IMG/VR virus record: IMGVR_UViG_3300031949_000001
Coordinates: 219,305-283,304 of that record
Source of the DNA: a virus
Lineage: Duplodnaviria > Heunggongvirae > Uroviricota > Caudoviricetes
Strand: one strand, 5' to 3'
DNA: 64,000 nucleotides
The notes beneath the pieces are model-generated. The model did no database searches. It worked only from the letters and a program-made list of their open reading frames with translations, and was not told the DNA's origin. The translations under genes were made by a program, and so were the position numbers. Positions 16,160 to 58,836 of this stretch are shown piece by piece; the first letter of the stretch is position 1; each line of letters opens with the position of its first letter.

Positions 16160-16457
16160 GAAACTCGGTGGAATTGGTTAACAAGGCTCCACCGAAAACC
16201 CCGGTCAAGATTAGGCTGCTACGCCGTAAACATCCTCGACATTGTAAAATGCGTCATTTGCATTTAGTTTTTGCTACTTCACGGTGTTCGCCTACCGAGT
16301 TGCTCTAATAGGTACATTATCATGCCCCCGTCGAATCCTGTCATCCCCATAATTTAAGAGATAACCACCATTGTACATCTTGGTGGAGATGCCGGTCTAC
16401 GATAACCGGGTCCGAAAACACTTTCCACAATTCGAGTTTACAACCATTAACTACACT
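16160..16457 (-). ncRNA. ssrA: two-piece (circularly permuted) tmRNA, ssrA-like
   Basis: The minus strand reads GGGGATGACAGGATTCGACGGGGG (compare E. coli GGGGCUGAUUCUGGAUUCGACGGG). A tag reading frame follows: GCA AAT GAC ... GTA GCA GCC TAA, giving ANDAFYNVEDVYGVAA. Upstream in the gene lies the acceptor piece, GGAAAGUGUUUUCGGAC-CCGGU-loop-ACCGG-CATCUCC-A-CCA, which includes a conserved G3-U70 wobble. Confidence 0.75.
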
Positions 16458-16464
16458 AGTATTT

Positions 16465-16493
16465 ATCGTACCATCAAATCCAAGTCTCGTCAA
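16465..16493 (-). promoter_or_regulatory. sigma70-like promoter for the tmRNA
   Basis: TTGACG, 17-nt spacer, TACGAT on the minus strand just 5' of the acceptor piece. Confidence 0.35.
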
Positions 16494-16699: not shown

Positions 16700-17238
16700 C
16701 GCATTACCCTCTCATAATGAACGAAATAGGTGTCTTTACTCTCGACCCCGTCTAATATCTTAAACTTTTTTGTTAGTTCTGTTATTGGAAAAAATTTATC
16801 ACAATCATAATATCCTTTTACAATTGTGCAATATATATCCTTTACATATGGCAAGAATTCAAGGTAAAGCTTCTCGCCACCAATTACAAACAATGTTTGA
16901 ACCTTATTTTCTACCATGGCTTCTTTTTGGTACATGATGCCTCGAAGCCAACCAATCCGTTTTGCACCATGAGGTTTGAATTCCTCGTTTCTGGAAAGTA
17001 CAAAACTTGTCCTCCCGCGCAATAGAGGTCCATCTTCGCGTAGTCCTCTATTTAGCTTATCTTCATGAATTTCCTCGTAAGTATTGCGCCCCATAACTAC
17101 AATATGACCGTTCGTCAATTCCTTGAATCGCTTCAAGTCTTTCTTATAGAATGGTTGATCCTTCCAAGGGGTCTTGAAATTCTTTGCAAACCCGCCGGCT
17201 TCATCCAAAGCGACCGCAATCGCTATGTTGTTGATCAT
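16696..17238 (-). CDS. frd: dihydrofolate reductase
   Basis: N-terminal IAVALDEAGGF, PW and VVMGRNTYE motifs; 180 aa. Confidence 0.85.
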   Translation of the reverse strand: MINNIAIAVALDEAGGFAKNFKTPWKDQPFYKKDLKRFKELTNGHIVVMGRNTYEEIHEDKLNRGLREDGPLLRGRTSFVLSRNEEFKPHGAKRIGWLRGIMYQKEAMVENKVQTLFVIGGEKLYLEFLPYVKDIYCTIVKGYYDCDKFFPITELTKKFKILDGVESKDTYFVHYERVMR

Positions 17239-17756
17239 TTGGTGCCTTTCGTCTTAGCCCAATTTAAATTAAGTTCTTCCAAATATTCCGTATCAAACTC
17301 TAAATCGAAATCAACTTCCGGCAACTTGCTCACATCCAGATCACCAATATCATATGACAAGGTTATGTGCGTCTCATACTTATCGTAATCAAACGTAGCA
17401 CCATGTTCTTTCATCAATTCTTCATGTCGCTTAACTAGAGCGGGGCACTTGAACTTTAAAACTAAACAGTTTGCTTTTTCCTCGTTTGGATCTTCCGGTG
17501 TTGTTTTCCACACCGTAAATCCTACCGTCTTGCCAACATAAGGGACATCTAGTTTACCAGCAGGTTTGTAATTTGGTAAGTGCTTTCTGCTGTAGAGAAT
17601 GGTCGTATGAAGTTTATCTGCCTTGACCGGGAGTGGAATCTTGTTATCTTCCATGTAGTCAGCCAGATTTTCTTTTGTTTCTTGGCTAGGTTTTACACCT
17701 GCGTAGATGCCTCGAACTGTTTTTCTTTTTTCTTCAAGGATTTCTTTTATTTTCAT
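17235..17756 (-). CDS. 2H phosphoesterase (LigT/Acb1-like)
   Basis: Two H-x-T/S-x motifs (LHTTIL and THITLS) about 70 residues apart; 173 aa. Confidence 0.6.
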   Translation of the reverse strand: MKIKEILEEKRKTVRGIYAGVKPSQETKENLADYMEDNKIPLPVKADKLHTTILYSRKHLPNYKPAGKLDVPYVGKTVGFTVWKTTPEDPNEEKANCLVLKFKCPALVKRHEELMKEHGATFDYDKYETHITLSYDIGDLDVSKLPEVDFDLEFDTEYLEELNLNWAKTKGTK

Positions 17757-21416: not shown

Positions 21417-22004
21417 CTAGTTTGCTTTTCGGTAAGCGGTCCAGATAGCCAAGTCGTACTCCGCTATAGTCGTACCTTCTGGAACCAATTTTAAAAACTG
21501 TTCTTCCCAATATTTGTATTGCTTTCCGGTCGGAGTGGACTTTGGTGCATCCAAGCCGACTGCGCGCATGAATTTTAACACATGGGTATCTAGACCGGCA
21601 TGTCGAGCATTCTCGCGTGTATGAATCAAGAAGCAACGAGCAGTTTTTGGACCGATGCCATGTATCTTTTCAAGATCGTCCACAGTACACATCTTGAGAT
21701 TTATTCCACTATAAGCTAGTTCGTGATAGCCGCGTGCTTTATTTTTGAAGCAACCAAAACGATGCTTCTTAACTAAGTCTGTGATCTGTTCAATAGAACC
21801 GGCTTCTCTAATCAATTGGAAGGGAGAGGCTAGATTTGGATCGAAGGTTGAAGCGACTTGCTTACTAAGGTCTAGGAAGAAGTTATCGACGTATTGAGAT
21901 ATGGTTGCTGCCGTCTTATTGGCTACAGCAACCCAAAAACAGATGTTTTCTTCCAGTTCATTTATCGTCAGATGGAAGTTGCTGATCTTCGTTGGATCTA
22001 TCAT
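21417..22004 (-). CDS. HhH-GPD family DNA glycosylase (EndoIII/Ogg-like)
   Basis: Helix-hairpin-helix IHGIGPKTARCF followed by a D..H segment; TAG stop. Confidence 0.55.
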   Translation of the reverse strand: MIDPTKISNFHLTINELEENICFWVAVANKTAATISQYVDNFFLDLSKQVASTFDPNLASPFQLIREAGSIEQITDLVKKHRFGCFKNKARGYHELAYSGINLKMCTVDDLEKIHGIGPKTARCFLIHTRENARHAGLDTHVLKFMRAVGLDAPKSTPTGKQYKYWEEQFLKLVPEGTTIAEYDLAIWTAYRKAN

Positions 22005-24349: not shown

Positions 24350-24376
24350 ATGGGGTGTAAAACACCCCATTTTTTA
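24350..24376. terminator. bidirectional rho-independent terminator
   Basis: ATGGGGTGT-aaa-ACACCCCAT hairpin flanked by A6 on the 5' side and T6 on the 3' side. Confidence 0.6.
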
Positions 24377-25237
24377 CTCTGCGGTCTTTTCGGTTGCAAT
24401 AATCCATGACTTGACGAACTCACTTCGAACAATATCATCTGTCGTGAATTTAACTGAAGCAAATTCGGGCATTGTTTCTATTGTTCTAAGAAATCGTTTC
24501 ATACCAGACTTGTCGTTGGACTTTTTATCTAAGTCTGTTTGAACGATATCACCGGTAAAGATGACCTTTGAATTGGTTCCGACTCTTGTCATGACGGAAT
24601 TAATTTCATGCCATGTCATGTTTTGACCTTCATCGATAACGATGATAGTGTTATCCCAAGTCAAACCACGAATGTAGGAAGTTGTCGTAAATCGGACCAA
24701 GCCGGTCTCCTTCATGTCATCATATGTCGATGCACGACCAAATAATTCTGACATGATATCGATGTATGGAAGTTCATAGAAGCGTGTTTTGTCTTCAAGA
24801 GATCCTGGCATGAAACCCAATTCGCGGGTTGCTACAGCGGAACGAACGATTCTTAAATGATAATACGATGTATTGCCATCTAGAATGTCACACATTGCAA
24901 GGTATAGGGCTAGAAATGTTTTACCGGTTCCGGCAGAACCTGAAGCACAAATTTGGTATCCCAAATTATGCAGTTTGAACATTTCTTTTTGATTATCTGT
25001 TAAGGGTTGTATTGCTCTGATATCATGTTTGGTCCATTTCTTTCTTTGTGGACCATCTAACATTGCTGCCTGATTATTGGATATGAGATGTAAATCTGCC
25101 TGTTTTTGCTTAGTTTTGTGACCTGCGTTCTTAGACATATCTTTGTCCTTTTTAATAGGTTGGTGTGTTACAAACTCGCTTACTGCCGAACTTATTTTAC
25201 ATAGCCACCCCCTTTCATTCAGTTTAAAGTTGATCAA
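24374..25237 (-). CDS. phoH: PhoH-like ATPase
   Basis: Walker A motif GSAGTGKTF and Walker B motif IVIDEGQN. Confidence 0.85.
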   Translation of the reverse strand: MINFKLNERGWLCKISSAVSEFVTHQPIKKDKDMSKNAGHKTKQKQADLHLISNNQAAMLDGPQRKKWTKHDIRAIQPLTDNQKEMFKLHNLGYQICASGSAGTGKTFLALYLAMCDILDGNTSYYHLRIVRSAVATRELGFMPGSLEDKTRFYELPYIDIMSELFGRASTYDDMKETGLVRFTTTSYIRGLTWDNTIIVIDEGQNMTWHEINSVMTRVGTNSKVIFTGDIVQTDLDKKSNDKSGMKRFLRTIETMPEFASVKFTTDDIVRSEFVKSWIIATEKTAE

Positions 25238-26779: not shown

Positions 26780-27151
26780 TTACTCCTTATCAAGCGGGTC
26801 GTCTTTGTTTACTTCGATCCATACACCATCCATCTTAACCTCAACTTTCACCTTACGCAACTCCTTTCTAACATTTTCATCTATTACAGAAAGTAGCCCG
26901 GTTCTACGTGCAGCTTCGTGCTTAACCCATGCTTGAAACTCCTTTGTGTTAAACATCTTTTCAAAAGCATCGATTTTGTTATCATGCTGTGATCTGGACG
27001 CCTCACTATAGCCGTGAGCACCAGATGGGCGGTGTATACAGTGAACCGCACTGGAGGTCTTATTTTTTTTCTGCCCACCCGAGCCGGTGCCCTTGGTATA
27101 CGACCATTCACAGTCTTTCGCCGTTACCCTAAAAAGTAACTCTTTTCCCAT
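26780..27151 (-). CDS. ArfB/ICT1-like peptidyl-tRNA hydrolase (class I release factor GGQ domain)
   Basis: GSGGQKKNKTSSAVHCIH versus E. coli ArfB GAGGQHVNKTSTAIHLRF; basic C-terminal tail; 123 aa. Confidence 0.75.
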   Translation of the reverse strand: MGKELLFRVTAKDCEWSYTKGTGSGGQKKNKTSSAVHCIHRPSGAHGYSEASRSQHDNKIDAFEKMFNTKEFQAWVKHEAARRTGLLSVIDENVRKELRKVKVEVKMDGVWIEVNKDDPLDKE

Positions 27152-28667: not shown

Positions 28668-30140
28668 TTAGAAGTCGTACTGAAGACGCATCATAATTAC
28701 CTTCTCACCATTTGTCTTAGCAACAGATGGTGTTGAAGCAGCTTGAGAGACAATCACTGGACTGTTGAATTTAGTATCAACATAGTTCAACATTAGACGA
28801 GTTCTTGGATTAAGAATCCAATTCACACCATATGTGATAGATGTTGCGCTAGTTGTAAATGCTGCACTCGCTGTTGAAGTAGGAATGACACCTGTACCAG
28901 CCTTACCGGTTGCGAAATCATCAGCATTAAACTGACTGAAACGAATACCAACTTCCCACCCACCACCACTAAGAGTCTTATAGTCAAAATCTTTCTTTGG
29001 TTTCATACGGTCGAACTTGCCATCCTTATACCGATCAGCGTAATGTTCACCCGTGATCATCCACATTATATCCACATAATTACTGGTGATTTTTTTGTCG
29101 TAGCCGACATTGGCTACCGAAACTCCACTGTAGTTGACTGACATCATTTCAGTTTGTATCTTAAAATTCTTATAAGCTAATACACCTTCAAGACCGGTAC
29201 GAGTCCGGGACAAATCAGCTCCAGTAAATGTACTCGGTGTAAAAAATATGATACCACGAGATTCAGTTCTACCGCTTACTGCCGCTCCGATTGGCTCGGT
29301 GCCTGTTGTGTAGCCAATTCCAAGATGAACAACAGTGTCTTTCCAAGAAAACAATTCAGCAAAGTTGATTGTGCCGCGTGCGATAATATCATTGCTATCG
29401 ACCGTATTTACTGTTTCGTTTGCGTTCTTACCTTGACCAGTAGACAATGCCAATGCATATGTGGTACCAGCCAATGGTGTACCATGAACCATGATACCGC
29501 GTTCCTTATTAGGAACCATCGAATTACCCATCGAACGTTCCATGAAATCGGTGAACAAGTCGCTTGTCATCTCTTCCAAACTGAAAGGCATCTTGAATTG
29601 ACCAACGCGGAACTGTGCTTCTTTCCAATAGTTGACGTTTAAATATGCTTCGTCAAGTACGCTTGCTCCACTACCACCACCGAAATCACCAATTATAAGC
29701 CATTCATACGAACCGTAGAATTTACCCTTCAAACCCAAAAAGCCTCTACGAATGTCGAATGTATTTGCTGTTGCGCCTGCCGCATCACCACCAAACTTAC
29801 GATAATCAAGTTGTAGACGAACTGTTGGGGCGAATGAGAAATTTTTGTCAGTACTTTCAAAAACCAAAGAACCGTCTTTAAGTTTACCTTTTACATCTGT
29901 TTTTGCGTTTTCCTTTGCTTTCTCTTTAGCTTCTATGTCCTGGGCTACCCTTAGAGCGGTTGCTCTACGATCAGCCCGTTGTGTTAATGTTTCCTCTTCA
30001 TGCTGGTTCGAAAGCGTCTTATACTCATCATCAGTTAATTTACCACTGTCATGAAGTGTATCGAGAAGATTAGTCGTTGTATCTGCATACACGAATCCTA
30101 TGCACATACTCAATGCGATTGTCATAATTAATTGTTTCAT
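28668..30140 (-). CDS. phosphate-selective porin O/P-like outer-membrane beta-barrel
   Basis: Signal peptide, alternating amphipathic strands and a C-terminal ...LQYDF with terminal Phe. Shares an operon with pstS. Confidence 0.6.
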   Translation of the reverse strand: MKQLIMTIALSMCIGFVYADTTTNLLDTLHDSGKLTDDEYKTLSNQHEEETLTQRADRRATALRVAQDIEAKEKAKENAKTDVKGKLKDGSLVFESTDKNFSFAPTVRLQLDYRKFGGDAAGATANTFDIRRGFLGLKGKFYGSYEWLIIGDFGGGSGASVLDEAYLNVNYWKEAQFRVGQFKMPFSLEEMTSDLFTDFMERSMGNSMVPNKERGIMVHGTPLAGTTYALALSTGQGKNANETVNTVDSNDIIARGTINFAELFSWKDTVVHLGIGYTTGTEPIGAAVSGRTESRGIIFFTPSTFTGADLSRTRTGLEGVLAYKNFKIQTEMMSVNYSGVSVANVGYDKKITSNYVDIMWMITGEHYADRYKDGKFDRMKPKKDFDYKTLSGGGWEVGIRFSQFNADDFATGKAGTGVIPTSTASAAFTTSATSITYGVNWILNPRTRLMLNYVDTKFNSPVIVSQAASTPSVAKTNGEKVIMMRLQYDF

Positions 30141-30142
30141 GG

Positions 30143-31117
30143 TTATTCCTTAGTTTCCATTTTAATTAGTTGCTCGATGGTTAGTCCTACTTTATTCTCT
30201 CCACCGAATTTTGTTCCGAATTTTTTACTTCTAGCGTGTGTTAGATTGTATTCATAAGCATGAACAGGCAAAGGCACATACTTGACTTCTTTAACTAATT
30301 TCGGCGCGTTCTTCATGTAGTACTCTATGAATCGTTGAACTTCCGATCTTTCGAAAGACCTTGCATTAACATAGATAAAGAGAGGTCTGGATAATGGTTG
30401 ATAAGTACCGTTCATAACTGTTTCTACGGAAGGACCGACCGGCTTTGCCCCAGTCTTGGAAATGATTAGAACTGCCCTTAGTTTGTTACGATTTTCATCA
30501 AAATAAGCAAACCCAAAATATCCAAGCGAATTCACATCTTGAGAAACGCCTTGAACTAGAACATTGTCATCTTCGCTCGCAGTAAAGTCACCACGAGAAG
30601 ATTTGGTTTTTCCAACAATAGCTTCGGTAAAATAATCAAATGTTCCAGAATCAGCACCGGGACCATAAAGCTTCAATTGAGTATTTGTCCATGCTGGATT
30701 TATTTGATTCCATTTTGTAATTTTACCCTGCGCCATCGGCTCCCATATTTTCTTTAGTTCTTCGACAGTAATGCTATTAAGCCAAGTATTTTTAGAGCTA
30801 ACAACAACAGTCAGAGCATCAAACGCAACTGGTAGTTCATAATACTGAATGCCGGCTACTTTACAAGCTTCCATTTCGGATTTGAGGATAGGACGAGACG
30901 CGTTAGCAATATCAATTTCGCCTCGACAAAACTTCTTAAACCCGCCGCCTGTACCAGAAATACCAACAGTAACTTTGGTGTGTGTCGATGATTGAAAGTC
31001 TTCTGCTACTGCCTCTGATATAGGAAACACTGTGCTCGATCCGTCTAGTTTAACTAACTGAGCATGTGCGGTTACAGAACAAAACAAAAAAGTAAGGATT
31101 GTTAGAACTGTCTTCAT
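30143..31117 (-). CDS. pstS: phosphate ABC transporter substrate-binding protein
   Basis: Signal peptide plus [17 protein letters not shown] and GISGTGGG motifs; 324 aa. Confidence 0.85.
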
Positions 31118-33105: not shown

Positions 33106-33843
33106 TTGATTTCCATTTTTGTGCCTAATAAATACATCAACTATTTGTGGGGTATTTCAATGTATTACATCATATACAAAATCACAAATGTTGTCAATAA
33201 TAAAATATATATCGGAAAACACAAAACCTTAGATTTAAATGATAATTATATGGGTTCTGGTAAGTATCTAAAACGCGCCATTAAGAAATATGGAATAGAA
33301 AACTTCAAAAAAGAAGTATTACATTATTGTAACTCTGATGAAGACATGATAGCAAAAGAACGAGAAATAGTTAACGAAGAATTCTTGAGTAGGACGGATA
33401 TTTATAATCTAAAAATTGGTGGAGAGGGTGGGTTTGATTATATAAACAAGTCTGAAAAGAAATTAGAATATGTTAGAAAAGGCAGAACAGAGGCAAATAA
33501 AAAAGATGCCCATATAAAAGCAGCCCAAAAACGTAAAGAACAGATGGCATTATATGGGTGTCCGTTGGGTAACTATTTAGGAAGTTTTAAAACTGATAAA
33601 GAATTACAGAAACTTGGACATAAATTTGCTAATACACCATCAGCAAAAGATAAAAGGAAGGAAACTTACAAAGAAATTAAGCATCAACAAGGCGAAACTA
33701 ATTCTCAATATGGCACTTGTTGGATTTATAATTTAAAATTAAAACAAACCATGCTAGTTAAAAAAGAAAGTTTGAAAGAATATGAAAATCTCGGATGGAA
33801 TCTTGGACATAAAATGAGATTTCATAAACCAAAAATAACATAA
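33106..33843 (+). CDS. GIY-YIG homing endonuclease
   Basis: YIIYKITN...KIYIGK with canonical spacing, Arg and Glu catalytic residues, and a basic C-terminal DNA-binding region. Confidence 0.75.
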   Translation: MISIFVPNKYINYLWGISMYYIIYKITNVVNNKIYIGKHKTLDLNDNYMGSGKYLKRAIKKYGIENFKKEVLHYCNSDEDMIAKEREIVNEEFLSRTDIYNLKIGGEGGFDYINKSEKKLEYVRKGRTEANKKDAHIKAAQKRKEQMALYGCPLGNYLGSFKTDKELQKLGHKFANTPSAKDKRKETYKEIKHQQGETNSQYGTCWIYNLKLKQTMLVKKESLKEYENLGWNLGHKMRFHKPKIT

Positions 33844-33936
33844 AAACTGGAGCGTCCTGCGAAATTCGAATTCGCTCATTCACGTTGGAAGCGTGACATG
33901 CTACCGTTGAACACCAAGGACGCATTTAAATATTTT

Positions 33937-34039
33937 TGGAGCTTCTGGTGAGAATCGAACTCACACACTAACATTGTTATGAACACTCGTTAAAAATATT
34001 CATAGGCAATGTCAGAGGCTACCACTACATCACAGAAGC
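33937..34039 (-). other. tRNA-like element (T-arm + 7-bp acceptor stem + encoded CCA) of atypical length
   Basis: GCTTCTG pairs with CAGAAGC (7/7). T-arm GTGAG-TTCGATT-CTCAC, discriminator T, CCA. A D-loop-like AGTGGTAG is present. There are 68 nt between the acceptor and the T-arm where 41 are expected, so no canonical cloverleaf can be drawn. Confidence 0.35.
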
Positions 34040-34098
34040 ATTTTGATGCACAAGTATTTACTACTGTACATCAAAAAATTGAAACTGTCAATAGGTTT

Positions 34099-43033: not shown

Positions 43034-43402
43034 TTATTTCTTGACGTGTCGAAATACCGTTACTGGAACAACTTCGATGTATCGAGGCTGTGTTTCTGGT
43101 ATAATAACCCGACATTTATAACAAATTCTCCAGCCGTGATAAGCGATACTAAGGTCGAAACTCTCTCGTAACTTACTGAAAAAGCTATATTTTAAAAGGG
43201 TGTACTTAAACGCAGCGGCAAGAACTTCTTCTCTGATAGACATAGCACCTTCACCAGTAATTCGTTCAATCATACGTTCAAAGAAGTGATCCGGGCAAAT
43301 GCCGAACATTACCCGGATCTCTCCATCATGCGTTTCGCGAACCTCTCTATCAAACCTTTGACAAAGAGACTGATACAAACTTTGAAGGTATACTACGCTC
43401 AT
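43034..43402 (-). CDS. hypothetical protein
   Basis: 122-aa ORF. Confidence 0.4.
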   Translation of the reverse strand: MSVVYLQSLYQSLCQRFDREVRETHDGEIRVMFGICPDHFFERMIERITGEGAMSIREEVLAAAFKYTLLKYSFFSKLRESFDLSIAYHGWRICYKCRVIIPETQPRYIEVVPVTVFRHVKK

Positions 43403-44493
43403 TACTTTAATCCCAAGATCACCATCAATCCATCAAGGCTCATCTCTCGCAAATACTTCTTAACAGAATCAACCTTACCAGCCCGCATGCTGTACAGGGC
43501 ACCGGGAGTACGACACTTAGCCGCCTGAACTGCCAAAGCAAAGTCCTTCTGAGTCGAGATATCCTTGATAGTATCATACAAAGCTTCCAATTCGGACACA
43601 AGAACATCATAACGCGTCTGAACCTCAGTGAATTGAGGTTCATATTCCGGAAAATAGGTCAAGAACTCCGAACCTTCCGACGTACGAACGATTTCCGTAA
43701 TTCGTTTGTAACCAAAACCATCCTTCAAGTGATGGATCGCGACATAAGCCGGATTCTTCATCTTGACACGATTGAAGAGACCATTCTCACGGTTGCTTAC
43801 AACGATGTAGCCTTCCTGGGAAAGCGGATCGATTGCAGCAAAAGTGTCAACAATTGCCTCGAATGATGTGAGGTCATAACGCTTAACACCAGTGAATGTA
43901 TCCTCGAAAAATACAGTCGAAGATTCAGATTCTGTTTCACGGTTGTGAACACCAATCAAAGTCAATGACGGTTCTGTGTAGCGAACAACAACACGGTTGA
44001 ACTGGCTTGTCAATTCGAAAGAAAAACACCAATCCTGACCAATGTCATCTAAAGTGTAACCCATTTCCTTAAAAGTCTTCCAAAAAAGCTCTTCAAAGGT
44101 GAATGGAAAGTCACCAACCTGACCACCAGCGTGCGGCGAACCAGAAGTCGCAACGTGCCACTTACCATCATAGTGGTACATAGTCATCAAGCTACCATCG
44201 ACCTTTTCTTCGACAACTGCGTCGTTCCAATCGATGGGCTCGGCGTGTCCTTCTCCATAGTTGAAGAATTTCTTAAAGCGATAGCAAATCAACTTCCAGT
44301 TGTTGAATTCATCCAAGATGATACCACGGCACTCCTGCACGATTTCTTCGGCAAAAGGAGACTCTAACTGATCATACTTCAGTAGGACCAAGTTCATGAA
44401 GTGTGGATGACGCATAGCGTTAATAGCGTACTTCGCTTTGAGGTCATCAAGGGAATTGCCATCACGAAGATACTTCTGTACCAAGAGTGTCAT
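43402..44493 (-). CDS. RNA ligase 1 (RnlA-like)
   Basis: Motif I EEKVDGSL (T4 Rnl1 has KEDG), motif IV EGYIVV, motif V RVKMK; 363 aa versus 374 aa in T4. Confidence 0.65.
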   Translation of the reverse strand: MTLLVQKYLRDGNSLDDLKAKYAINAMRHPHFMNLVLLKYDQLESPFAEEIVQECRGIILDEFNNWKLICYRFKKFFNYGEGHAEPIDWNDAVVEEKVDGSLMTMYHYDGKWHVATSGSPHAGGQVGDFPFTFEELFWKTFKEMGYTLDDIGQDWCFSFELTSQFNRVVVRYTEPSLTLIGVHNRETESESSTVFFEDTFTGVKRYDLTSFEAIVDTFAAIDPLSQEGYIVVSNRENGLFNRVKMKNPAYVAIHHLKDGFGYKRITEIVRTSEGSEFLTYFPEYEPQFTEVQTRYDVLVSELEALYDTIKDISTQKDFALAVQAAKCRTPGALYSMRAGKVDSVKKYLREMSLDGLMVILGLK

Positions 44494-48621: not shown

Positions 48622-49038
48622 TTATTTTTGAAGCACAGAAAAGATGTATTCCCAAATTTCCGGAGTAAGAACCTTTTTGTACGCATCGTAATTCGAAATA
48701 CATTCCAAATAGTACTCCGATTTCTTGGGATACCAATTACGGAGGCGATTCCAAAGATCCCAACGAGCATGAACGAATTTGCTCTGATGACCATTGTCTA
48801 TCTTGCTTTTCTTGGTGAGTGGAGTGAATCCGAAATCATCCGGACGACCACGCAAGATGTTATGAATAATCATATCCGATGCGGTGAGGCAACGATTATG
48901 AGCCAATGTCTTATGGGTTGCTCGGTACTGTAGATACTGCTCTTTACTGACGAACGGTTTTGTGTCTTGAATGATTGTTTCCATTTTGAATCTCCTAATA
49001 AAAAGTTGTGTTTGTAAAACCGGATAAACTAAAAACAA
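48622..49038 (-). CDS. hypothetical protein
   Basis: 138-aa ORF. Confidence 0.4.
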   Translation of the reverse strand: MFLVYPVLQTQLFIRRFKMETIIQDTKPFVSKEQYLQYRATHKTLAHNRCLTASDMIIHNILRGRPDDFGFTPLTKKSKIDNGHQSKFVHARWDLWNRLRNWYPKKSEYYLECISNYDAYKKVLTPEIWEYIFSVLQK

Positions 49039-49099
49039 CTTTATTAGGGTGGGCTTAAATTATGAACCTACATACATCCTCCTGTCTATGTTGTAAATT

Positions 49100-49175
49100 T
49101 GGCGCGCAGTGTGGGAATCGGACCCACGACAATCGGTTTTAGAGACCGCTCCTCTGACCACTAAGGTAACTGCGC
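49100..49175 (-). tRNA. tRNA with CUA anticodon (amber suppressor; Trp-like anticodon arm)
   Basis: The minus strand reads GCGCAGT-TA-CCTT-AGTGGTCA-GAGG-A-GCGGT-CTCTAAA-ACCGA-TTGTC-GTGGG-TCCGATT-CCCAC-ACTGCGC-G-CCA. It is 76 nt with 7/7 acceptor pairs, U33, A37, anticodon positions 34-36 = CUA, and discriminator G73. The anticodon arm is nearly identical to E. coli tRNA-Trp (CCGGUCUCCAAAACCGG). Confidence 0.75.
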
Positions 49176-49593
49176 ATGTTGGATTGAATAATACAGGGAT
49201 TTGTTTAGGATGTCAATACGAGGTTGGCTAGTCGCCACCACCGTCTCCACCATCGCCTCCAGAATCGGAGTCTGAGCCGGTATTAGAGCCGAAGCCCCCG
49301 ACACCAAGCCAGAAGCCACCAAATCGACGGTGATAGGATTTCTTAGAAGATTTGCGTTTTCGCTTCTTCTTTCTCTTTTTTTCAATAAGAAGGATTTCTC
49401 GAAGAAGCATTTTGTCTAGTCTTGATTTTTACGGTAAGGCTTGTCTTTCGTCCTCAAATAATCGCGACGATATACTTTAGCGGCTGTCGGCTTACCAACA
49501 TTCTTGGCTGCTCTCGCTTCGTCTGATGCTAGCCTTTCAGCAATCATAGTATCAGCAATTTCATTGAGTTGCTTAACTAGTTCGAATTTCATA

Positions 49594-51087
49594 TTAAGCT
49601 CCTACATCATTAGCAGCATGCGCCAATAAGCGACGTGCAGTAACGACTTCTGGTGGTGTTAGATGGAATAAATCTGCGTACTGGAGCTTTTGAACAGCCG
49701 ACGCTAGATTTCTATCTTCTGGTGGGTAGTCGGAATATTTAGCAATGATTTCTGCTACCTTACCGATATCAGCCGGTTCTAGTTTAAAACCTGATCTGGA
49801 GACACTAGTGGATGGCTCTCCGATTTGCTGATCATCCGAATCAATACCTTGAGAAAATGCTTCTGGATCATCCCCACCCACATCTGGTACTCTACCGCCC
49901 GGTGCTCCTGGATCTTCATCACCAAATGCTTCAGCCAAATCGTACTTCATGCAAGTTTCGCGGATCAAATCCATTTTTTCATCTTTTGTCATGACATCAA
50001 ATCCGTCAACCTTCTCAGCACCATGTTCCATAGCGATCTTGATAATTGTTGTCTTGTCATCATAATCTGCCGGATCAAGATAATTTTCGAAAACTTTGTT
50101 TAGTTTGCGCATCATCTTTTGAAATTCAAAAGCGCTTTCAACAATGTAATCTACTTCCGGAGCAGCAAAATCAACACCTTCATGATGGGCTGCTTTTTTA
50201 GCTTTCTTTTTCCACATAACAGATGCTGCTACAGCTTTTGGATCGCGAGCGCCTCCAGCTTTTGCTTTTCGTTCAACTTTACCAAAACCACCACCGAAAA
50301 CATTCTTACCGGAATGTGCTTTCTTGACTGTAGTTGTCTTTTGTTTTTTCGTGAGACCAGCGGATGGTTTTTTCTTTTCTTCAAGAACGACACCATTGGT
50401 AGTAACACTTTCATCCTTCTTACTACCGGCTTCATGCGCCGCTTTCATTTTCTTGTAGCGAGCGCTAAGTGTATTGAAATTGCCAGTAATTCTGGACTTG
50501 TGCTTCTTTCTAGCTGCGGGGTCTTTTAGTTTGTCGGCTAGAGCACGACCACGCAAAGCAGCCTTGTACATCTTTTCGACTTCAGCGAAACTGGCGCCTG
50601 CTGGAATCTCCACAGCTTCAGCCATAATGATTGTATCGGCTTCTTCTTGAGTTAGACCTTCACTCATCGCTTTATATGCTTCTTGTGCTCGAAGAGCACT
50701 CATTAGACGACCTTGTATATTACTGTCTTTAAGAGCCTGTTGAACTCGTTGGAAAAATGTCAAGCCGCCAGGAGTCTTGGATTGAGCAGCTTGAGTAGCC
50801 TCGTTCTCAATTTGGGAAATTAGTGTCAAAGCATCTGGCGCGCCGCTCCTACCAGAATTTTCGACCAAGAAGTTTGTGAAGGACATATTACGGACATCTT
50901 CAATCATTTTTAGTGTCTCCAAGTATTCAACTGCTTCCTTAACCTTACGCTTAGCTCTCTTGTGCTTTGCTGCATCAGCACGATTAAAATCACACGCGAC
51001 ATCTTTTGGAATGCCGGAAGTGGATTTCTCAGGATCGTGGCAAGCTATCGCCATTGCGACTTTCTGCTTATCGGATACGGAAGGCAT
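49594..51087 (-). CDS. large hypothetical protein (putative late/virion protein)
   Basis: 497 aa with Lys/Ala-rich low-complexity stretches. An ATAAATA core lies about 25 nt upstream. Confidence 0.5.
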   Translation of the reverse strand: MPSVSDKQKVAMAIACHDPEKSTSGIPKDVACDFNRADAAKHKRAKRKVKEAVEYLETLKMIEDVRNMSFTNFLVENSGRSGAPDALTLISQIENEATQAAQSKTPGGLTFFQRVQQALKDSNIQGRLMSALRAQEAYKAMSEGLTQEEADTIIMAEAVEIPAGASFAEVEKMYKAALRGRALADKLKDPAARKKHKSRITGNFNTLSARYKKMKAAHEAGSKKDESVTTNGVVLEEKKKPSAGLTKKQKTTTVKKAHSGKNVFGGGFGKVERKAKAGGARDPKAVAASVMWKKKAKKAAHHEGVDFAAPEVDYIVESAFEFQKMMRKLNKVFENYLDPADYDDKTTIIKIAMEHGAEKVDGFDVMTKDEKMDLIRETCMKYDLAEAFGDEDPGAPGGRVPDVGGDDPEAFSQGIDSDDQQIGEPSTSVSRSGFKLEPADIGKVAEIIAKYSDYPPEDRNLASAVQKLQYADLFHLTPPEVVTARRLLAHAANDVGA

Positions 51088-53649: not shown

Positions 53650-54141
53650 CTATCCTTTATAATCGCAAACAAAAAATTCTACATCCGGAAAATTAGCTGC
53701 GACCTTCTCAACTACCGGTTTAACTTCTTCTTCCCAATTCAATCCACCGAGATTACAACCGATCTTGGGCATGTAAATCGGAAGTTTTCGCTGTCTTGCA
53801 AAAGAGGCTACTGTTGACAACCCTTGTTCGATGGCTTCTGGATTAGCGTATTTAGCACCGTCTCGACCGTAGTATAATTGAGTGAAAATGTTGGCGACGA
53901 AGAGTTCCAAACCGATGGCTTTAACGCCTTCTTGTGTGTCTACATAGAGGACAAACCCAAGCAAACCTGCTTTGTTTTTTTGGTTTTTCTCCCAATATGA
54001 ACGATATGCCTTGTAGACAATTGGGAATCTTTGACGTAGCGCAAATGCAACACCAGATCCCATTTTCCCTTGACAATTACATCCATGAGCGATGATTCCC
54101 ATCTTAATGGTGGTGAGGTCTAATGTTTCATAATGTATCAT
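53650..54141 (-). CDS. macro domain protein (ADP-ribose binding/hydrolysing)
   Basis: GIIAHGCNCQGKMGSGVAFAL and PKIGCNLGGL align with macro-domain motifs (compare Af1521 AIVNAANKRLEHGGGVAYAI ... SAGIYG). Confidence 0.7.
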   Translation of the reverse strand: MIHYETLDLTTIKMGIIAHGCNCQGKMGSGVAFALRQRFPIVYKAYRSYWEKNQKNKAGLLGFVLYVDTQEGVKAIGLELFVANIFTQLYYGRDGAKYANPEAIEQGLSTVASFARQRKLPIYMPKIGCNLGGLNWEEEVKPVVEKVAANFPDVEFFVCDYKG

Positions 54142-54178
54142 ATATGTTATTAAAATGGTCTTAAATGTAATTTATATG

Positions 54179-55066
54179 TTACATTACGAGGATACCTTTA
54201 CTTGCCTCGCTCATGAGTTGGTCGAAATAATAATTCATAGTATTTGCGAAAGTTTCTACAGAATCCGCATAGTCTTCACGAGTATCAGCATCCGAATACA
54301 ATGGATACTTACCCCAACCTGTTCCACCAATAGTCTTTGGTAACTTGTTAAATCTTACCTTACCTTCAATGACATACTGCGCGAATAGTTCATTGTAAAT
54401 TTCGAAATAATCTCGAATATTCTTTTCTCTAGCTGATTTAAAGGTACACAATTCCTGGAACAGATGAATCATCCTTAATTGGCTGTTTCGAATCTGTGCC
54501 CTTCTTTGTTCATCATACGCTGACGCAGAAGACTGAACACTTGTATATCCTCTCATATTATAGACGTTCTGAAGGATATCTTCAAGAAAATGGTTAGTTT
54601 CCTTCACTAATTCAGCATAAAATCGAAATTGCCGTGTACTCCTTCCACCATTAAAATCAAATCTAGCCAGTGCGTGAGCCATTCTATGCGCCATGATCCA
54701 AGGCGTCATTGGCACCTTTTGAGCAGCAGCATTTCCAACATAAATGATATTGACGTTTTCCTCTTGCCCAACATAAGGCTCTACCGCCTTAGCAACATCA
54801 GCACCTAAATTCTTCTCAACCCAAGGCAAATCAACCTTTCCTTTTTCCGTAAACTGACGAGCACCCGGCTTATTATCAAAGAACATATTGATAATGTATG
54901 GCGTCTTGCCGAACTTCTTCCTGACGTTCTCAATAGCCTTTGGGCTTGAAACTAGAGCGGGATCTGTTTTGCCTTGGAAAGAATGGGGCTTGCTAAAATC
55001 GCCGATAGTTTGATAGGCGCCGAGGGGTACTTCCGCCAGAAATGTCTTGAAAGTTGTTTTTTCCAT
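54179..55066 (-). CDS. hypothetical protein
   Basis: 295-aa ORF between macro-domain and NDT-like genes; no motif recognised. Confidence 0.45.
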   Translation of the reverse strand: MEKTTFKTFLAEVPLGAYQTIGDFSKPHSFQGKTDPALVSSPKAIENVRKKFGKTPYIINMFFDNKPGARQFTEKGKVDLPWVEKNLGADVAKAVEPYVGQEENVNIIYVGNAAAQKVPMTPWIMAHRMAHALARFDFNGGRSTRQFRFYAELVKETNHFLEDILQNVYNMRGYTSVQSSASAYDEQRRAQIRNSQLRMIHLFQELCTFKSAREKNIRDYFEIYNELFAQYVIEGKVRFNKLPKTIGGTGWGKYPLYSDADTREDYADSVETFANTMNYYFDQLMSEASKGILVM

Positions 55067-55107
55067 AATAAATCCTTGAGTTCACTATGGAATATTTATT
55101 TCAAACT

Positions 55108-55452
55108 TTACTGAACATCACCATTTTCCATTTTTTTCTGATCTTCATAAGGAGCTACTACCTTCCGTTCGAATTCGGTCTTTGCACATTCTAATACTCC
55201 AACTGCTCGATTTACTCTGTAATAATTGGTAATTGGTATACCACCAGCATCAACTCCATCTGTATAAAATCCTTTCATCAATCTGGTTATGACATAATTC
55301 ATCACACCATCCAATTTTGATTGATCAAGTTCTAAATTTTCAGTGGCAAGTGTATGATACCCATCCAACAATATAGCATCACAAATAGATGCCATTAATT
55401 GACTGATTTCTGGATCGATTTCATCTCTAAGTATTTGTTTAATATAAGGCAT
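55108..55452 (-). CDS. hypothetical protein
   Basis: 114-aa ORF. Confidence 0.4.
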   Translation of the reverse strand: MPYIKQILRDEIDPEISQLMASICDAILLDGYHTLATENLELDQSKLDGVMNYVITRLMKGFYTDGVDAGGIPITNYYRVNRAVGVLECAKTEFERKVVAPYEDQKKMENGDVQ

Positions 55453-55461
55453 TCTTTTCTC

Positions 55462-55959
55462 CTAAGGTAGTAATACAATTCTTGCTATGTCCATACCCTC
55501 TTCAAGTGTTTCCACAATGTAAGGGGTAGATGCGTTAATCATCGGATGGTCATGCAAATTGCCTGACTTTTCTCTGACTATAATGATAGGTTTTCTTTGT
55601 TGCCAAACCCAGGCAATTTCCATGACAGTACCAATGGTAACACGAGTCGCACCGAGTAAATTAACAAACGTGCCATCACGATTGAAACAATCAAAAGCAT
55701 CTCTGAATAGAATTCCTTGTTCAGAAGACAAAACGGAAGACAGTCCACCAAGACCTAATTGTCCCGGAGCCCCATCAATAACTTTCAGTTTCTTCAGGTA
55801 AGACTTGCCGCGCAAAGGCGACCAGCATTCAAATTCTGTTAGTGTATTGGCGACATAAAAGCGCCAATCCGTACTTTGTTCGTAATTTAGACCACCAATT
55901 GGTCCCGAGAGGTATAGGCTAGGTTTTTTCATTATTATTCTGTATCTTCCATTAACCAT
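55462..55959 (-). CDS. nucleoside 2-deoxyribosyltransferase-like protein
   Basis: SLYLSGPIGG and ...RVTIGTVMEIAWVWQQRKPIII (GTxxE.G/A..K.P) match NDT/Rcl-fold motifs. Confidence 0.55.
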   Translation of the reverse strand: MVNGRYRIIMKKPSLYLSGPIGGLNYEQSTDWRFYVANTLTEFECWSPLRGKSYLKKLKVIDGAPGQLGLGGLSSVLSSEQGILFRDAFDCFNRDGTFVNLLGATRVTIGTVMEIAWVWQQRKPIIIVREKSGNLHDHPMINASTPYIVETLEEGMDIARIVLLP

Positions 55960-56513
55960 TGATGAAAGTCGTATGCTCCATGAAGTGTTGTATGTGTATC
56001 TTTCGTTAATCCATGAACTAAAGCAACGCCAACTTGTTTAGCACAAATTGCTGATGGTACGTTTCCAACACCAGTTCCCAATCCCGGAATAGCGATACTT
56101 TTAAAACCGTATGTAATAACCGCTCTAACAATAGCCTTCATCGCTAGATACACGTTTACAGTATTACCAATCCTCATAGGAATTCTCATTGTTGGCGCTG
56201 CCAGGAGAGATTTGAATTGTGGATGATCTGTAAAGACTGCTACTGCTTGACCCACCAAAAGTTCACCATTGTAAGCGCTGTTGATAACCTCTTGCAACCT
56301 CTCTTGAACGTGCCAGCCAAGGTATCGGCTATAGGCTAGATCAATGCCACCGTCCATGAAACCAAAGCTGTTGGCGGGACTAACGATGGCGTCATATTCG
56401 CCCGGCAAATTGGTGAAATCACCTTGGAAAAATTTTACATCCGATGCTTTTTGAAATCGCTTTCGATAGGCATCAACCATTTCAGCGCTTCGATCAAAAA
56501 AAGTTATTATCAT
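55935..56513 (-). CDS. macro domain protein (MacroD/YmdB-like)
   Basis: GDFTNLPGEYDAIVSPANSFGFMDGGIDLAY and IAIPGLGTGVGNVP align with the MacroD1 GDIT..VDAIVNAAN..LLGGGGVD and FPCISTGIYGFP motifs. Confidence 0.7.
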   Translation of the reverse strand: MIITFFDRSAEMVDAYRKRFQKASDVKFFQGDFTNLPGEYDAIVSPANSFGFMDGGIDLAYSRYLGWHVQERLQEVINSAYNGELLVGQAVAVFTDHPQFKSLLAAPTMRIPMRIGNTVNVYLAMKAIVRAVITYGFKSIAIPGLGTGVGNVPSAICAKQVGVALVHGLTKDTHTTLHGAYDFHQWLMEDTE

Positions 56514-56779
56514 TCTCTTCCTGCTTCGTATATTGCCAATGCAGCTTCTTCAAGAGCATCGCGTATTTTCTTTAGACGTTCTGTTTCAGATTCTTTTTCG
56601 AGGACGCCCCATGACATACCTACCGGATGAGTTGGAAAACCACATTCTTGTAATTGTGTTGCGACCCATTCAGCCACTTCTTCTATAGACGCATCTTTCC
56701 ATCCGGCTTGGTGCATGTGTAAAGTAATGGCGATGGAGAAACAGATGTCAATTAATTTTTGTTCTCGGGATATATTCAT
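56510..56779 (-). CDS. hypothetical protein
   Basis: 89-aa ORF. Confidence 0.35.
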   Translation of the reverse strand: MNISREQKLIDICFSIAITLHMHQAGWKDASIEEVAEWVATQLQECGFPTHPVGMSWGVLEKESETERLKKIRDALEEAALAIYEAGRE

Positions 56780-57486
56780 TTTGCAACTTCTTTTCCTAAA
56801 TGCTCCATAAAGAACTCATACCTGTCTTTATGAACCTCGTATGTGGTAGTCACTAAATCAACGCAGGACTTGCAATACAATGGGGAAACTTTTGACACGA
56901 AATGATGCTTCGATTTCGCGAAAACATTGCCACAAAGGCTGCAAAGGTATTCTTGTTTTGAACTATGATTGCCGTAAATATCCCTCTTTAGAATTCCGTA
57001 TGGCAAATCGTTAAGATACGCAAACAGATCATCAAACTCCACAAACATCTTGGTTGTAAGGCTCTGGAGCCAGCCTGGAACCTCTTTCCACCATTCCTTG
57101 TAGTCGGAGACCAAGAATAGTGGTACACCCGCCTCATAAGCCACCTGACACTCACTGATGGTGCCAGCGCCTCGTCGGGCGCTCTCGTCGTAAAACACAA
57201 TCACAGCATCGCTATCTTGTTTCACCAGTGCGATGTCTGTCCATACGAAATGTCGTCTGAAGTTAGATTTGTACTGTAAGTGGTTACTTTTGTCAAGCAT
57301 GTTGTAAAGTTCACCATATTTCGTAGCATATGCTCTGTCCATATCGGTGATATCGATAGGGAAATAGTTCATTTTTTTCAATTTATCGGCGCAGAGTTTT
57401 CTCCAACCAGCACCTAAATCTTTTGCAAACTGCATGCCTCCCGAGAGATACACCGCTCCACGAGTTAGAGTTGGATGATTTATCAT
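56776..57486 (-). CDS. nucleoside 2-deoxyribosyltransferase-like protein with C-terminal zinc ribbon
   Basis: AVYLSGGMQF ... DAVIVFYDESARRGAGTISECQVAYEAGVPLFLV, plus CSLCG...CKSC. Confidence 0.6.
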   Translation of the reverse strand: MINHPTLTRGAVYLSGGMQFAKDLGAGWRKLCADKLKKMNYFPIDITDMDRAYATKYGELYNMLDKSNHLQYKSNFRRHFVWTDIALVKQDSDAVIVFYDESARRGAGTISECQVAYEAGVPLFLVSDYKEWWKEVPGWLQSLTTKMFVEFDDLFAYLNDLPYGILKRDIYGNHSSKQEYLCSLCGNVFAKSKHHFVSKVSPLYCKSCVDLVTTTYEVHKDRYEFFMEHLGKEVAK

Positions 57487-57561
57487 TATTTTCTCCTTCT
57501 TATTATATACTTATATCACACCAATGATAAATAGTCAATCTATTTCAGAGGCGGCATGTAA

Positions 57562-58179
57562 ATGAAAACTTGTATCAAATGTAATGAATCTAAACTATTA
57601 TCTGAATTTTATAAAAATAGTCATTGCGCGGATGGACATTTAACTATTTGTAAAGCATGTTCTAAAATCTATAAACAACAAAATCAAAAACATGCAGCAG
57701 CAGTAGAAAAACAACGACGTAGACGTTTAGGTGTAAAACAAAAACGTATTTTCTCTTCGGAAGAAGAGAGGCGGCTGGCTCATATAGAAGTCTGTAAGCG
57801 CCATCAACTTCGAAACAAAGAAAAGTACGATCAATATAGTGTTTGGTATCGCAAAACTTTTAAAAAAGAATGCAACCAAAGAGTTAAAGAATGGTCTCAG
57901 AAAAATCCTATAAAGCGCAAAACCCAATCTAAAAAACGACACGATCAAGAACGCAAAGCTGTTCCACCTTGGACTGACTTCAATAAAATATTAGACATCT
58001 ATAAACAATGTGAACAAACTACAAAAGAAAGTGGTATTCTTCACACTGTAGACCATTACTATCCTATTCTCGGAAAGACTGTCTGTGGTCTTCATGTAGC
58101 TGATAATCTCAAGATAATTACTGCGCTTGAGAATTCGAAGAAAGGGAACAAGCATCCAGAGGATTTTTATCTTCTTTGA
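57562..58179 (+). CDS. HNH endonuclease
   Basis: N-terminal Cys4 and C-terminal HTVDHYYP...N...N.KKGNK. Confidence 0.6.
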   Translation: MKTCIKCNESKLLSEFYKNSHCADGHLTICKACSKIYKQQNQKHAAAVEKQRRRRLGVKQKRIFSSEEERRLAHIEVCKRHQLRNKEKYDQYSVWYRKTFKKECNQRVKEWSQKNPIKRKTQSKKRHDQERKAVPPWTDFNKILDIYKQCEQTTKESGILHTVDHYYPILGKTVCGLHVADNLKIITALENSKKGNKHPEDFYLL

Positions 58180-58305
58180 TTATCGGTCTTTCTCTCATTG
58201 GTATCATACCACCACAATTGATCGGGTCGGAGCAATGAGACATACCGACCAATCTACAATCAGGACAATACATTCCTGACGGATTGTCACTGAATGGAAT
58301 TTCGG

Positions 58306-58836
58306 TCATTTTTCGTCCAATCCCCATACTGCTCTTATTATGTCTTCTTCTGTACAATGCGTTGGTTCAAGATGACTTGGGAAAATTATTCGCTGTCCTT
58401 TCAACTCTTTTCGTATCTTCATCAAAATTTTACCTAGCTCGTTTCGACCATTACCAGAGCCAACAGGAGATACACCCCAAAATTTGTCAGACCAACGGTT
58501 TCCTTCCTCTAAAACAGCATCACCAGTCTCTAATAGCATATGAGCAAGATCGCCATTCTGTTGGAATTTTGCGCGCACAATTTCTTCCATGAGACCAACC
58601 TTGACTGCTTCCCAATCTGGACGAACGACCATCTTACGACCAAACCGTTTTACGTCTCCGGGCTTCTCTATTGTAGAAATCTCAAGGCGTAGCTCTCGGT
58701 CGGTAGTCTTCGCGGCGACGTAGGCATTCTCACTTGCCCGCCAAAGAATATTGTCCCATACAAATCGGCATTTCCAAAAATTTGAAAGGAACCTATGCTT
58801 GCCTTGGAACTCTAGAATTTTCTTTACGGTTTCCAT
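58306..58836 (-). CDS. NADAR (YbiA-like) domain protein
   Basis: FLSNFW..., SENAYVAAK, KF.Q...L...LL.TG.A.L.E, D.FWG motifs colinear with E. coli YbiA; 176 aa. Confidence 0.75.
   Translation of the reverse strand: METVKKILEFQGKHRFLSNFWKCRFVWDNILWRASENAYVAAKTTDRELRLEISTIEKPGDVKRFGRKMVVRPDWEAVKVGLMEEIVRAKFQQNGDLAHMLLETGDAVLEEGNRWSDKFWGVSPVGSGNGRNELGKILMKIRKELKGQRIIFPSHLEPTHCTEEDIIRAVWGLDEK

Follow-up and report, generated by a model that had tools for sequence, protein, structure and literature searches.

We found that the 64,000-nucleotide stretch of phage DNA analysed here (the window) carries an amber-suppressor tRNA gene, and the most probable reading, to which we give a probability of about 0.8, is that this gene is functional and has been kept by selection in a jumbo phage that uses the standard genetic code. 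The reading is drawn from the sequence of the gene, from the code used around it and from the syntenic tRNAs of relatives. A conserved UAG-ending open reading frame (ORF) upstream of the gene is put forward, more tentatively, as its candidate target in cis.

Structure of the tRNA gene and its promoter

The gene and the promoter ahead of it were located as follows:

49100..49175, minus strand: amber-suppressor tRNA gene, anticodon CUA, class I (ARAGORN, Rfam, synteny)
49188..49216, minus strand: sigma-70-type promoter TTGACA-N17-TATTAT, 11/12 matches (motif scan)

A first, sequence-only reading of the window had described a 76-nt cloverleaf on the minus strand with CUA, U33, A37 and G73, and both programs upheld it. 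ARAGORN called a 76-nt tRNA at 49100-49175(-) with the anticodon cta placed at position 34, as had been claimed, and RF00005 of Rfam matched over the full model (1-71) with 61.4 bits against a gathering score of 29 (E=7e-11), the highest score among the three tRNA matches in the window. The sequence is GCGCAGU UA CCUU AGUGGUCA GAGG A GCGGU CUCUAAA ACCGA UUGUC GUGGG UCCGAUU CCCAC ACUGCGC G CCA, and the stems of the ARAGORN cloverleaf are arranged 7/4/5/5 bp. The 8-nt D-loop contains G18-G19, the anticodon stem has 5 bp, the 7-nt anticodon loop has U33, C34-U35-A36, A37 and A38, the variable loop is of 5 nt, and the 3' end consists of the discriminator G73 and an encoded CCA. The gene is thus a canonical elongator tRNA and, by its sequence, an amber suppressor.

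A mismatch, G27.A43, is present in the anticodon arm (GCGGU-CUCUAAA-ACCGA), and the T-loop, UCCGAUU, has C55 in place of U55, a form also seen in 12 of 404 sampled phage tRNAs; in a test of the tertiary nucleotides (G18 G19 U54-U55-C56), G18 and G19 were present and position 55 was C. The C55, the G27.A43 mismatch and the C33 of one relative (L140) were counted against function. Minimum-free-energy folds of the upstream leader together with the tRNA largely kept the cloverleaf helices, and alternative folds sequestering the tRNA were rejected on this ground.

ARAGORN gives the label 'tRNA-Pyl' to any CUA tRNA. True tRNA-Pyl is recognised by a 3-nt variable loop, a small D-loop without G18G19, an elongated anticodon stem and a pylS/pylBCD context. 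That identity was excluded by the architecture of the gene (5-nt variable loop, 8-nt D-loop with GG, 5-bp anticodon stem), and no Pyl genes were found among the Pfam annotations of the window.

The -10 element of the promoter ends 12 nt ahead of tRNA position 1. Eight sites scoring at least 11/12 to the sigma-70 consensus were found in the window, the tRNA promoter being one of them, compared with 2.6 in shuffles. Two independent assemblies from other samples contain the tRNA and its promoter without a single base change, their flanks differing by 0.3-0.9%, so the CUA anticodon is no assembly artefact or error. Strain-level SNPs, which could have indicated the overlapping frame under selection upstream of the tRNA, were absent from 49025-50308.

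The gene had also been taken for the only canonical tRNA in the window, which proved incorrect, as another tRNA, a tRNA-like gene and a tmRNA were detected:

33848-33923, minus strand: tRNA-Gly(UCC) (ARAGORN, Rfam)
33940-34039, minus strand: second tRNA-like gene (Rfam tRNA match)
16211-16445, minus strand: permuted two-piece tmRNA (ARAGORN/Rfam)

Genome and genetic code

The window is part of a jumbo phage genome of at least 379 kb. A protein from the tRNA neighbourhood, belonging to the cluster of the 497-aa protein described below, sits on a 378,912-bp contig, and positions 1-44570 of the window match a 122,949-bp Logan contig exactly, as deduced from coordinates and, for 1-30184, confirmed by BLAST. 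The window encodes a DnaB-like helicase, ribonucleotide reductase, NAD-dependent ligase, ThyX, DHFR, PhoH, MazG and ClpP, as well as PstS, a porin, Acb1, two RNA ligases, Macro and NADAR domains and Cpn10. The NAD-dependent ligase showed 42% identity to that of Sinorhizobium phage Phosso (469 kb) and 40% to that of XacN1, with 35-40% to XacN1 and Atu_ph07.

As far as can be seen, the standard code is used throughout the visible genome, by early and middle genes and by the late baseplate genes alike. ORFs covered 0.916 of the window under code 11 and 0.911 when TAG was read as sense, and coverage in relatives was 0.89-0.91 under code 11 with TAG used as a stop. The 8.9 kb lying beyond the window start encode a Phage_base_V-like protein, gp25 and a 1,691-aa protein, all of them baseplate genes, and no in-frame TAG was found in these over the ~2,500 codons read, so the late structural genes are standard as far as they are visible; the gene after them was called at 2,927 residues. 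The DNA examined for the code amounts to ~73 kb of at least 379 kb.

The stops were tabulated in a simple non-overlapping ORF set (n=104), which contained 54 TAA, 35 TGA and 15 TAG, in agreement with the earlier statement that most genes stop at TAA or TGA. The five genes named in the sequence-only reading as ending in TAG do so, but the total is about 15 in 104 ORFs and not five. TAG is therefore an ordinary minor stop, with ~14% of the stops in the window and 13% (5/39) in the relative L140, and TAG stops were depleted in neither. Tandem back-up stops followed 4 of the 15 TAG stops versus 9 of the 89 other stops, a difference that was not significant (p=0.09). Traces of this sort might be left by a strong constitutive suppressor, so the undepleted TAG stops and the lack of a significant excess of back-up stops count against one. 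Given the standard code and TAG as a minor stop, the effect of the suppressor would be a partial read-through.

A change of code for late or lysis genes lying elsewhere in the genome, with the tRNA recoding TAG (to Gln) as in the code-15 phages and the window showing only early genes compatible with either code, seems unlikely to us, although suppressor tRNAs are strongly tied to recoded phages (10.1101/2021.08.26.457843; PMC13037316). The anticodon arm CGGTCTCTAAAACCG was found in at least 119 IMG/VR contigs, and ARAGORN called a tRNA(CUA) in ~100 loci; among the same-arm loci of at least 5 kb, 44 of 83 had a strong TAG-recoding signal and the rest had none. These loci favour such a change, as does the fact that the ~73 kb examined are a part of the genome. 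Recoded phages normally give up the recoded codon as a stop and often encode an RF2. Here, TAG ends ~14% of the genes in the window and is also a stop in the relatives, the window is covered no better when TAG is taken as sense, and no full-length RF2 was found, the one candidate being a protein of 123 aa with the GGQ domain only, which scored far below the prfA/prfB cut-offs. Recoded phages also concentrate their in-frame stops in late structural genes (10.1101/2021.08.26.457843), whereas the baseplate codons that we read have no in-frame TAG and the 2,927-residue gene is intact. Finally, XacN1, a standard-code jumbo phage with two CUA suppressors, has 18 amber stops, and in-silico read-through of these revealed no targets (PMC5852040).

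Homologues of the GGQ-only protein occur in cluster C mycobacteriophages and a few others, and were not present in XacN1 or Phosso. No link was established between this release-factor protein and CUA suppressors in terms of co-occurrence.

Conservation in relatives

Relatives were found by using the protein encoded next to the tRNA gene as a synteny anchor:

49594..51087, minus strand: 497-aa protein with no assigned function, synteny anchor (homologues 47-77% identical)

Identity to the anchor was 77% in L137-139, 57% in L140 and L143, 48% in L141 and 47% in L145. Every relative with DNA reaching the slot (L137, L140, L141 and L145) has a tRNA(CUA) there, and in these four the motif TTGACA-N17-TAnnnT is kept upstream of the tRNA. 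The tRNA bodies are of two to three types, with the window, L141 and L140 forming one and L137 and L145 another. These types interleave relative to the anchor identity, and L137, the closest relative by the anchor, has the other type. When the syntenic tRNAs were compared, 94.4% of the cloverleaf cells were paired and both sides had changed in 16 of 21 pairs; such pairing and compensation was reached in none of 500 shuffles, and slid controls were paired at 35-52%.

Invariant across the syntenic tRNAs were C32 and C34-U35-A36-A37-A38. The complete CUCUAAA loop was the same in the window, L137, L141, L145 and Phosso, and L140 has C33; the discriminators among the syntenic relatives were G, A and U. 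An anticodon and loop that stay invariant in a changing body are good evidence for selection on UAG decoding as such, and the tRNA occupying the slot has apparently been remodelled or exchanged.

Searches in public collections were negative. No copy of the tRNA was found with exact and degenerate patterns in IMG/VR and JGI metagenome contigs, the tRNA region and the 497-aa neighbour had no match among GenBank phages by megablast and tblastn, no relative of the neighbour was found in IMG/VR, and its gene did not appear in the bacterial and archaeal genomes scanned.

The rapid turnover of tRNA bodies between lineages is what antagonistic selection might give, and the two RNA ligases of the window are consistent with an arms race around tRNA damage. 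Both observations could speak for a non-translational role, in which the tRNA serves as a decoy or substitute target for a host anticodon nuclease or another tRNA-directed defence, or as a structural or processing element, and in which it would decode UAG only incidentally. We consider this role quite unlikely, because it is exactly C32, CUA, A37 and A38 that stay invariant while all else changes, and because a CUA tRNA cannot stand in for the tRNA of any sense codon.

TAG-ending genes as proposed read-through targets

According to the sequence-only reading, read-through would provide programmed C-terminal extensions to the five named genes (the helicase at 3823, the glycosylase at 21417 and the ORFs ending at 6505, 44504 and 45362), or the suppressor would counter host nonsense-mediated effects; we know of no bacterial counterpart of the latter. 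The extensions are very unlikely. Three TAG-ending genes are indeed in frame with the next ORF (6505 with 6169, 21417 with 21156, and 55462 with 55108), and two relatives retain the TAG at 55462. However, the downstream ORFs are equipped to start independently, with an ATG and a Shine-Dalgarno sequence, and several of the TAG stops form the beginning of a TAGGAG. The extensions past the other TAG stops are of 0-16 codons, those of the remaining named genes being of 1-16. The ORF at 55108-55452, preceded by a TAG-ending ORF that was missing from the list of the sequence-only reading, makes up an entire, self-contained DUF6899 domain, and the 55462 and 55108 ORFs are out of frame in the closest relative, L137.

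Stops also interchange between orthologues. Comparison of the window with its relatives gave TAG-TAG in 4 cases, TAG-TAA in 2 and TGA-TAG in 1, and the Macro gene stops at TAG in the window and at TGA in L140, so that TAG acts like any minor stop. With short extensions, independent starts, a stand-alone domain, a lost frame and interchangeable stops, and with nothing gained from the search in XacN1, the extension model is unsupported. The weakest alternative, a neutral passenger or decaying tRNA-Trp copy having no selected function, could invoke C55, the G27.A43 mismatch and the undepleted TAG stops, but it is scarcely credible for a gene with the highest Rfam score of the three window matches, whose slot, promoter and CUA are kept down to 47% neighbour identity together with compensatory stem changes.

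Probable charging and mode of action

The suppressor had been thought to be a Trp-derived UAG reader. A blastn search of E. coli genomes with the tRNA, made to test its resemblance to tRNA-Trp, gave no match at that database size, and phage tRNA-Trp genes were therefore used for the comparison. The nearest non-CUA tRNA was a phage tRNA-Trp(CCA) with 75% identity, and the motif GGTCT-NNN-AAACC was present in 8 of 14 phage tRNA-Trp genes, 0 of 23 tRNA-Gln and 0 of 21 tRNA-Lys genes from the same loci. A Trp-like ancestry is thus plausible for the anticodon arm, and G73 fits it, but neither the acceptor stem nor the D-arm is Trp-like.

The E. coli suppressor su7/supU is a tRNA-Trp in which CCA was changed to CUA, and it is charged mainly with Gln because GlnRS reads U35. 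The phage tRNA shares with it the Trp-type arm, differing from that of the CCA tRNA by C35 to U, and the discriminator G73. In contrast to su7, which is a laboratory mutant, it occurs in nature as a conserved phage gene, and its acceptor stem GCGCAGU and D-arm C10-G25 are not Trp-like. Our best guess by analogy is that Gln, and some Trp, would be inserted at UAG; G73 fits both Trp and Gln tRNAs, and charging of the su7 type would fit the TAG-to-Gln assignment seen in phages. Since the discriminators vary among the relatives, the amino-acid identity may differ between lineages.

The functional suppressor that we favour would act in the following way. Host RNA polymerase would transcribe the tRNA, probably early in infection, from its own near-consensus sigma-70-type promoter, and the transcript would mature to a canonical class I tRNA with its encoded CCA. 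Charging by a host synthetase would follow, most likely by GlnRS and/or TrpRS to judge from U35, G73, the Trp-type anticodon arm and the behaviour of E. coli tRNA-Trp(CUA). The charged tRNA may then compete with RF1 at UAG, and the expected outcome is that some UAG codons are read through, not that TAG changes to sense genome-wide. For a dedicated target the sequence offers a single candidate, the conserved UAG-ending 58-aa ORF immediately upstream of the gene.

A UAG-ending leader ORF upstream of the tRNA gene

Three features lie between the synteny anchor and the end of the tRNA region:

49416..49592, minus strand: conserved 58-aa leader ORF (MKFELVKQLNEIAD...KVYRRDYLRTKDKPYRKNQD), TAG at 49416-49418; the one TAG-ending ORF that stands out, not among the five named in the sequence-only reading
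49044..49415, minus strand: read-through frame of the leader, 123 codons without TAA or TGA, ending TAA-TAA at 49041-49046
49228..49410, minus strand: 60-aa ORF between leader and promoter, with a K/R-rich N-terminus, a GGFW motif and a G/S/D-rich tail

The leader ORF, which had no Pfam match, is of 57-63 aa and stops at TAG in six of six lineages, the TAG being constant although the C-termini vary (...RKNQD, ...RKDQ, ...RKKHAHSHGA). In three more distant leader homologues, none with a tRNA(CUA) within 2.5 kb, the stop is TAA, and a TGA comes 0-3 codons later. The leader frame of the window spans the G-rich 60-aa ORF, the promoter and the whole tRNA gene, and contains additional in-frame TAGs at 49161-49163 (inside the tRNA), 49088 and 49070. 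In each of the five lineages with a visible tRNA, the leader frame alone lacks TAA and TGA over the whole distance between its TAG and the 3' terminus of the tRNA, and it closes at a TAA 5-58 nt past the tRNA; the totals of TAA and TGA per frame for these lineages plus Phosso were 0/30/11. The distances from TAG to tRNA were 240, 68, 67, 318 and 256 nt, with the tRNA in all three phases relative to the leader.

For comparison, the frame of the upstream ORF was open through the tRNA in 26% of cases with gaps of 31-100 nt among ~500 other phage tRNAs, and in 0.7% (1/134) with gaps of more than 200 nt. Composition of the G-rich ORF, which lies in another frame, accounts for part of the openness of the leader frame in three lineages. 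This 60-aa ORF is present in the window, L141, L143 and L145 and absent from L137 and L140, and its own stop is TAG in the window and TAA in relatives. A hairpin resembling a terminator, its loop containing the -35 element, separates TAG and tRNA in L137 and L140; no such hairpin was found there in the window.

Outside this lineage, the leader arrangement is limited to Phosso and a single 608-kb contig (L062). In Phosso the upstream ORF likewise ends in TAG and its frame is open across the tRNA, but this ORF is not homologous to the leader; XacN1 and CBB are without such a layout. Across the IMG/VR loci no association was found between an upstream ORF ending in TAG and a tRNA(CUA). The pattern was found post hoc in lineages that share ancestry, and we present it as a lead, not as a result.

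It is possible from these sequences, though we present it only as a tentative idea, that the leader UAG is a dedicated cis target or sensor in an autoregulatory loop. Translation of polycistronic transcripts would run on through the tRNA sequence only while RF1 is out-competed by the suppressor. Autoregulation might then take one of three routes: folding or processing of the tRNA could be occluded, anti-termination or anti-polarity could operate (a hairpin lies between UAG and tRNA in L137 and L140), or the extension could inactivate the leader protein. The nearest parallel is the autoregulation of prfB (RF2) by an in-frame UGA, with leader-peptide attenuation as a further one. The proposed loop would share with these that the fate of a short ORF at its stop reports the activity of a decoding factor in cis, as a functional analogy that is unproven; unlike prfB, it involves no frameshift, and the reporter would be the UAG ending a leader ORF upstream of the tRNA gene. 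No description of such a UAG-leader and suppressor arrangement was found in the literature searched.

Relation to known suppressors

Since CUA suppressors have been published for XacN1 (PMC5852040) and for the standard-code jumbo Ralstonia phage RsoM2USA (PMC8504454), the kind of gene described here was already known. The locus is a further example of that class, and what is new is the comparative evidence and the candidate cis target. CUA tRNAs annotated 'tRNA-Pyl' are also carried by Phosso (Sinorhizobium) and CBB (Pectobacterium). With these four phages the window shares a jumbo myovirus-type genome, the standard code, a class I tRNA, the CUCUAAA loop and the lack of identified genome-wide targets. 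Identity of the tRNA to these suppressors is nevertheless only 67-76%, a blastn search with the Phosso suppressor gave generic tRNA similarity only, and the window tRNA differs from the known jumbo-phage suppressors in being a single copy outside a large tRNA cluster or terminal repeat. The two tandem CUA copies of XacN1 differ from each other in acceptor stem and discriminator.

The code-15 phages (crAss-like, Lak and other gut phages) carry suppressor tRNAs as well (10.1101/2021.08.26.457843; PMC9523058). Common to them and the window are a phage tRNA(CUA) expressed in a standard-code host and the same anticodon arm; unlike them, the window and its extension show no in-frame TAG in the 73 kb seen, keep TAG as a stop and have no RF2.

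Why phages without recoding should carry amber suppressors is a minor puzzle of some standing, as those of XacN1 and RsoM2USA were reported without a target or role. To this the locus adds comparative evidence for UAG decoding under selection in a non-recoding lineage, and the UAG leader in cis offers a concrete, testable candidate target. Were the leader link true, a decoding factor would here monitor and adjust its own activity in a new manner, and the locus would supply a compact natural part with which amber suppression could be controlled; otherwise the locus would be one more ordinary example of the known class. Among the phage loci compared, the class I suppressors most like that of the window sit in large, non-recoded contigs.

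Interval between the leader UAG and the suppressor tRNA

In the window and in three relatives found through the 497-aa neighbour protein (L141, L143 and L145), a small conserved G-rich ORF was located between the UAG-ended leader ORF and the promoter of the suppressor tRNA.

window 49228-49410, minus strand: G-rich ORF
L141 3151-3402: G-rich ORF
L143 2360-end: G-rich ORF
L145 4398-4583: G-rich ORF

Its product is K/R-rich at the N-terminus, contains a GGFW motif and ends in a tail rich in Gly, Ser and Asp. With the leader frame as reference, the ORF lay in frame +2 in every case, and it is overlapped by the read-through frame of the leader. Two further relatives, L137 and L140, had no G-rich ORF, and both carried a terminator-like element in the interval from the leader UAG to the tRNA.

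L137 7366-7395: GC-rich hairpin followed by a U-run
L140 11853-11890: GC-rich hairpin followed by a U-run

In both cases the loop of the hairpin contained the -35 hexamer of the tRNA promoter, and the predicted geometry is attenuator-like.

CUA suppressors in other phages

Suppressor tRNAs with the CUA anticodon were also found in L140, in Xanthomonas phage XacN1 (L136) and in a huge-phage contig of 607,744 bp from IMG/VR (L062).

L140 11908-11983: syntenic suppressor tRNA
L136 36047-36205: two tandem CUA suppressors
L062 3880-4260: two tandem tRNA(CUA) genes

The L140 suppressor had C33 instead of the near-universal U33, an anticodon loop CCCUAAA and the discriminator A73. The XacN1 copies, with an overall identity of 88%, differed only in their acceptor stems and discriminator (A73 vs G73), which looks as if each one were tuned to a different synthetase. 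In L062, the TAG of the upstream ORF was found 11 nt ahead of the first tRNA(CUA), and the frame of this ORF had no TAA or TGA across both tandem genes.

Other translation and RNA-related genes of the window

16211-16445, minus strand: phage-encoded two-piece (permuted) tmRNA (Rfam tmRNA_permuted, 97 bits)
26780-27151, minus strand: 123-aa protein with the release-factor GGQ domain alone (Pfam RF-1, 51.5 bits)
33848-33923, minus strand: tRNA-Gly(UCC)
33940-34039, minus strand: 100-nt tRNA-like gene directly upstream of tRNA-Gly(UCC) (Rfam, 39 bits)
33106-33843, plus strand: GIY-YIG endonuclease gene adjoining this pair
8033-9016 and 43402-44493, minus strand: a pair of RNA ligases, one PF09414 RNA_ligase and the other T4 Rnl1-like (PF09511)

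The Rfam alpha_tmRNA model also matched the tmRNA region (16167-16487, 52 bits), whereas ARAGORN did not detect the tmRNA. Interpretation by eye of the cmscan alignment gave the tag ANDAFYNVEDVYGVAA, with UAA after it. A tmRNA of this permuted kind is a hint at a host of alphaproteobacterial type.

Because the GGQ-only protein scored far under the prfA, prfB, prfH and ArfB cut-offs, it is predicted to be codon-independent and rescue-factor-like. Most of its homologues came from cluster C mycobacteriophages, in which the gene is annotated and which also encode a tmRNA; comparing the distribution of homologues established no link between this protein and the CUA suppressor.

The tRNA-like gene had normal acceptor and T arms and an oversized anticodon region, and a call from ARAGORN required the intron mode, which gave 'Ile(aat)' and an intron of 7 nt. 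The sequence TTGACA-N17-TACAGT was present upstream (tRNA locus 33848-34090, minus strand). The two RNA ligases would fit a capacity for RNA or tRNA repair.

Phosphate acquisition and probable counter-defence genes

28668-31117, minus strand: porin O/P (490 aa) and PstS-like phosphate-binding protein (324 aa)
24374-25237: PhoH
53650-58836: NAD and ADP-ribose gene cluster, with two Macro-domain proteins and NADAR
17235-17756: Acb1 (anti-CBASS) homologue

The porin O/P and the PstS-like protein, together with PhoH, are phage-carried phosphate-acquisition genes. The NAD/ADP-ribose cluster, which continues with NAMPT/NAPRTase genes just past the window end (L124), and the Acb1 homologue are probably counter-defence genes. 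PHROGs annotates the ORF at 53650-54141 as 'phosphatase', but it encodes a Macro/DarG-like domain.
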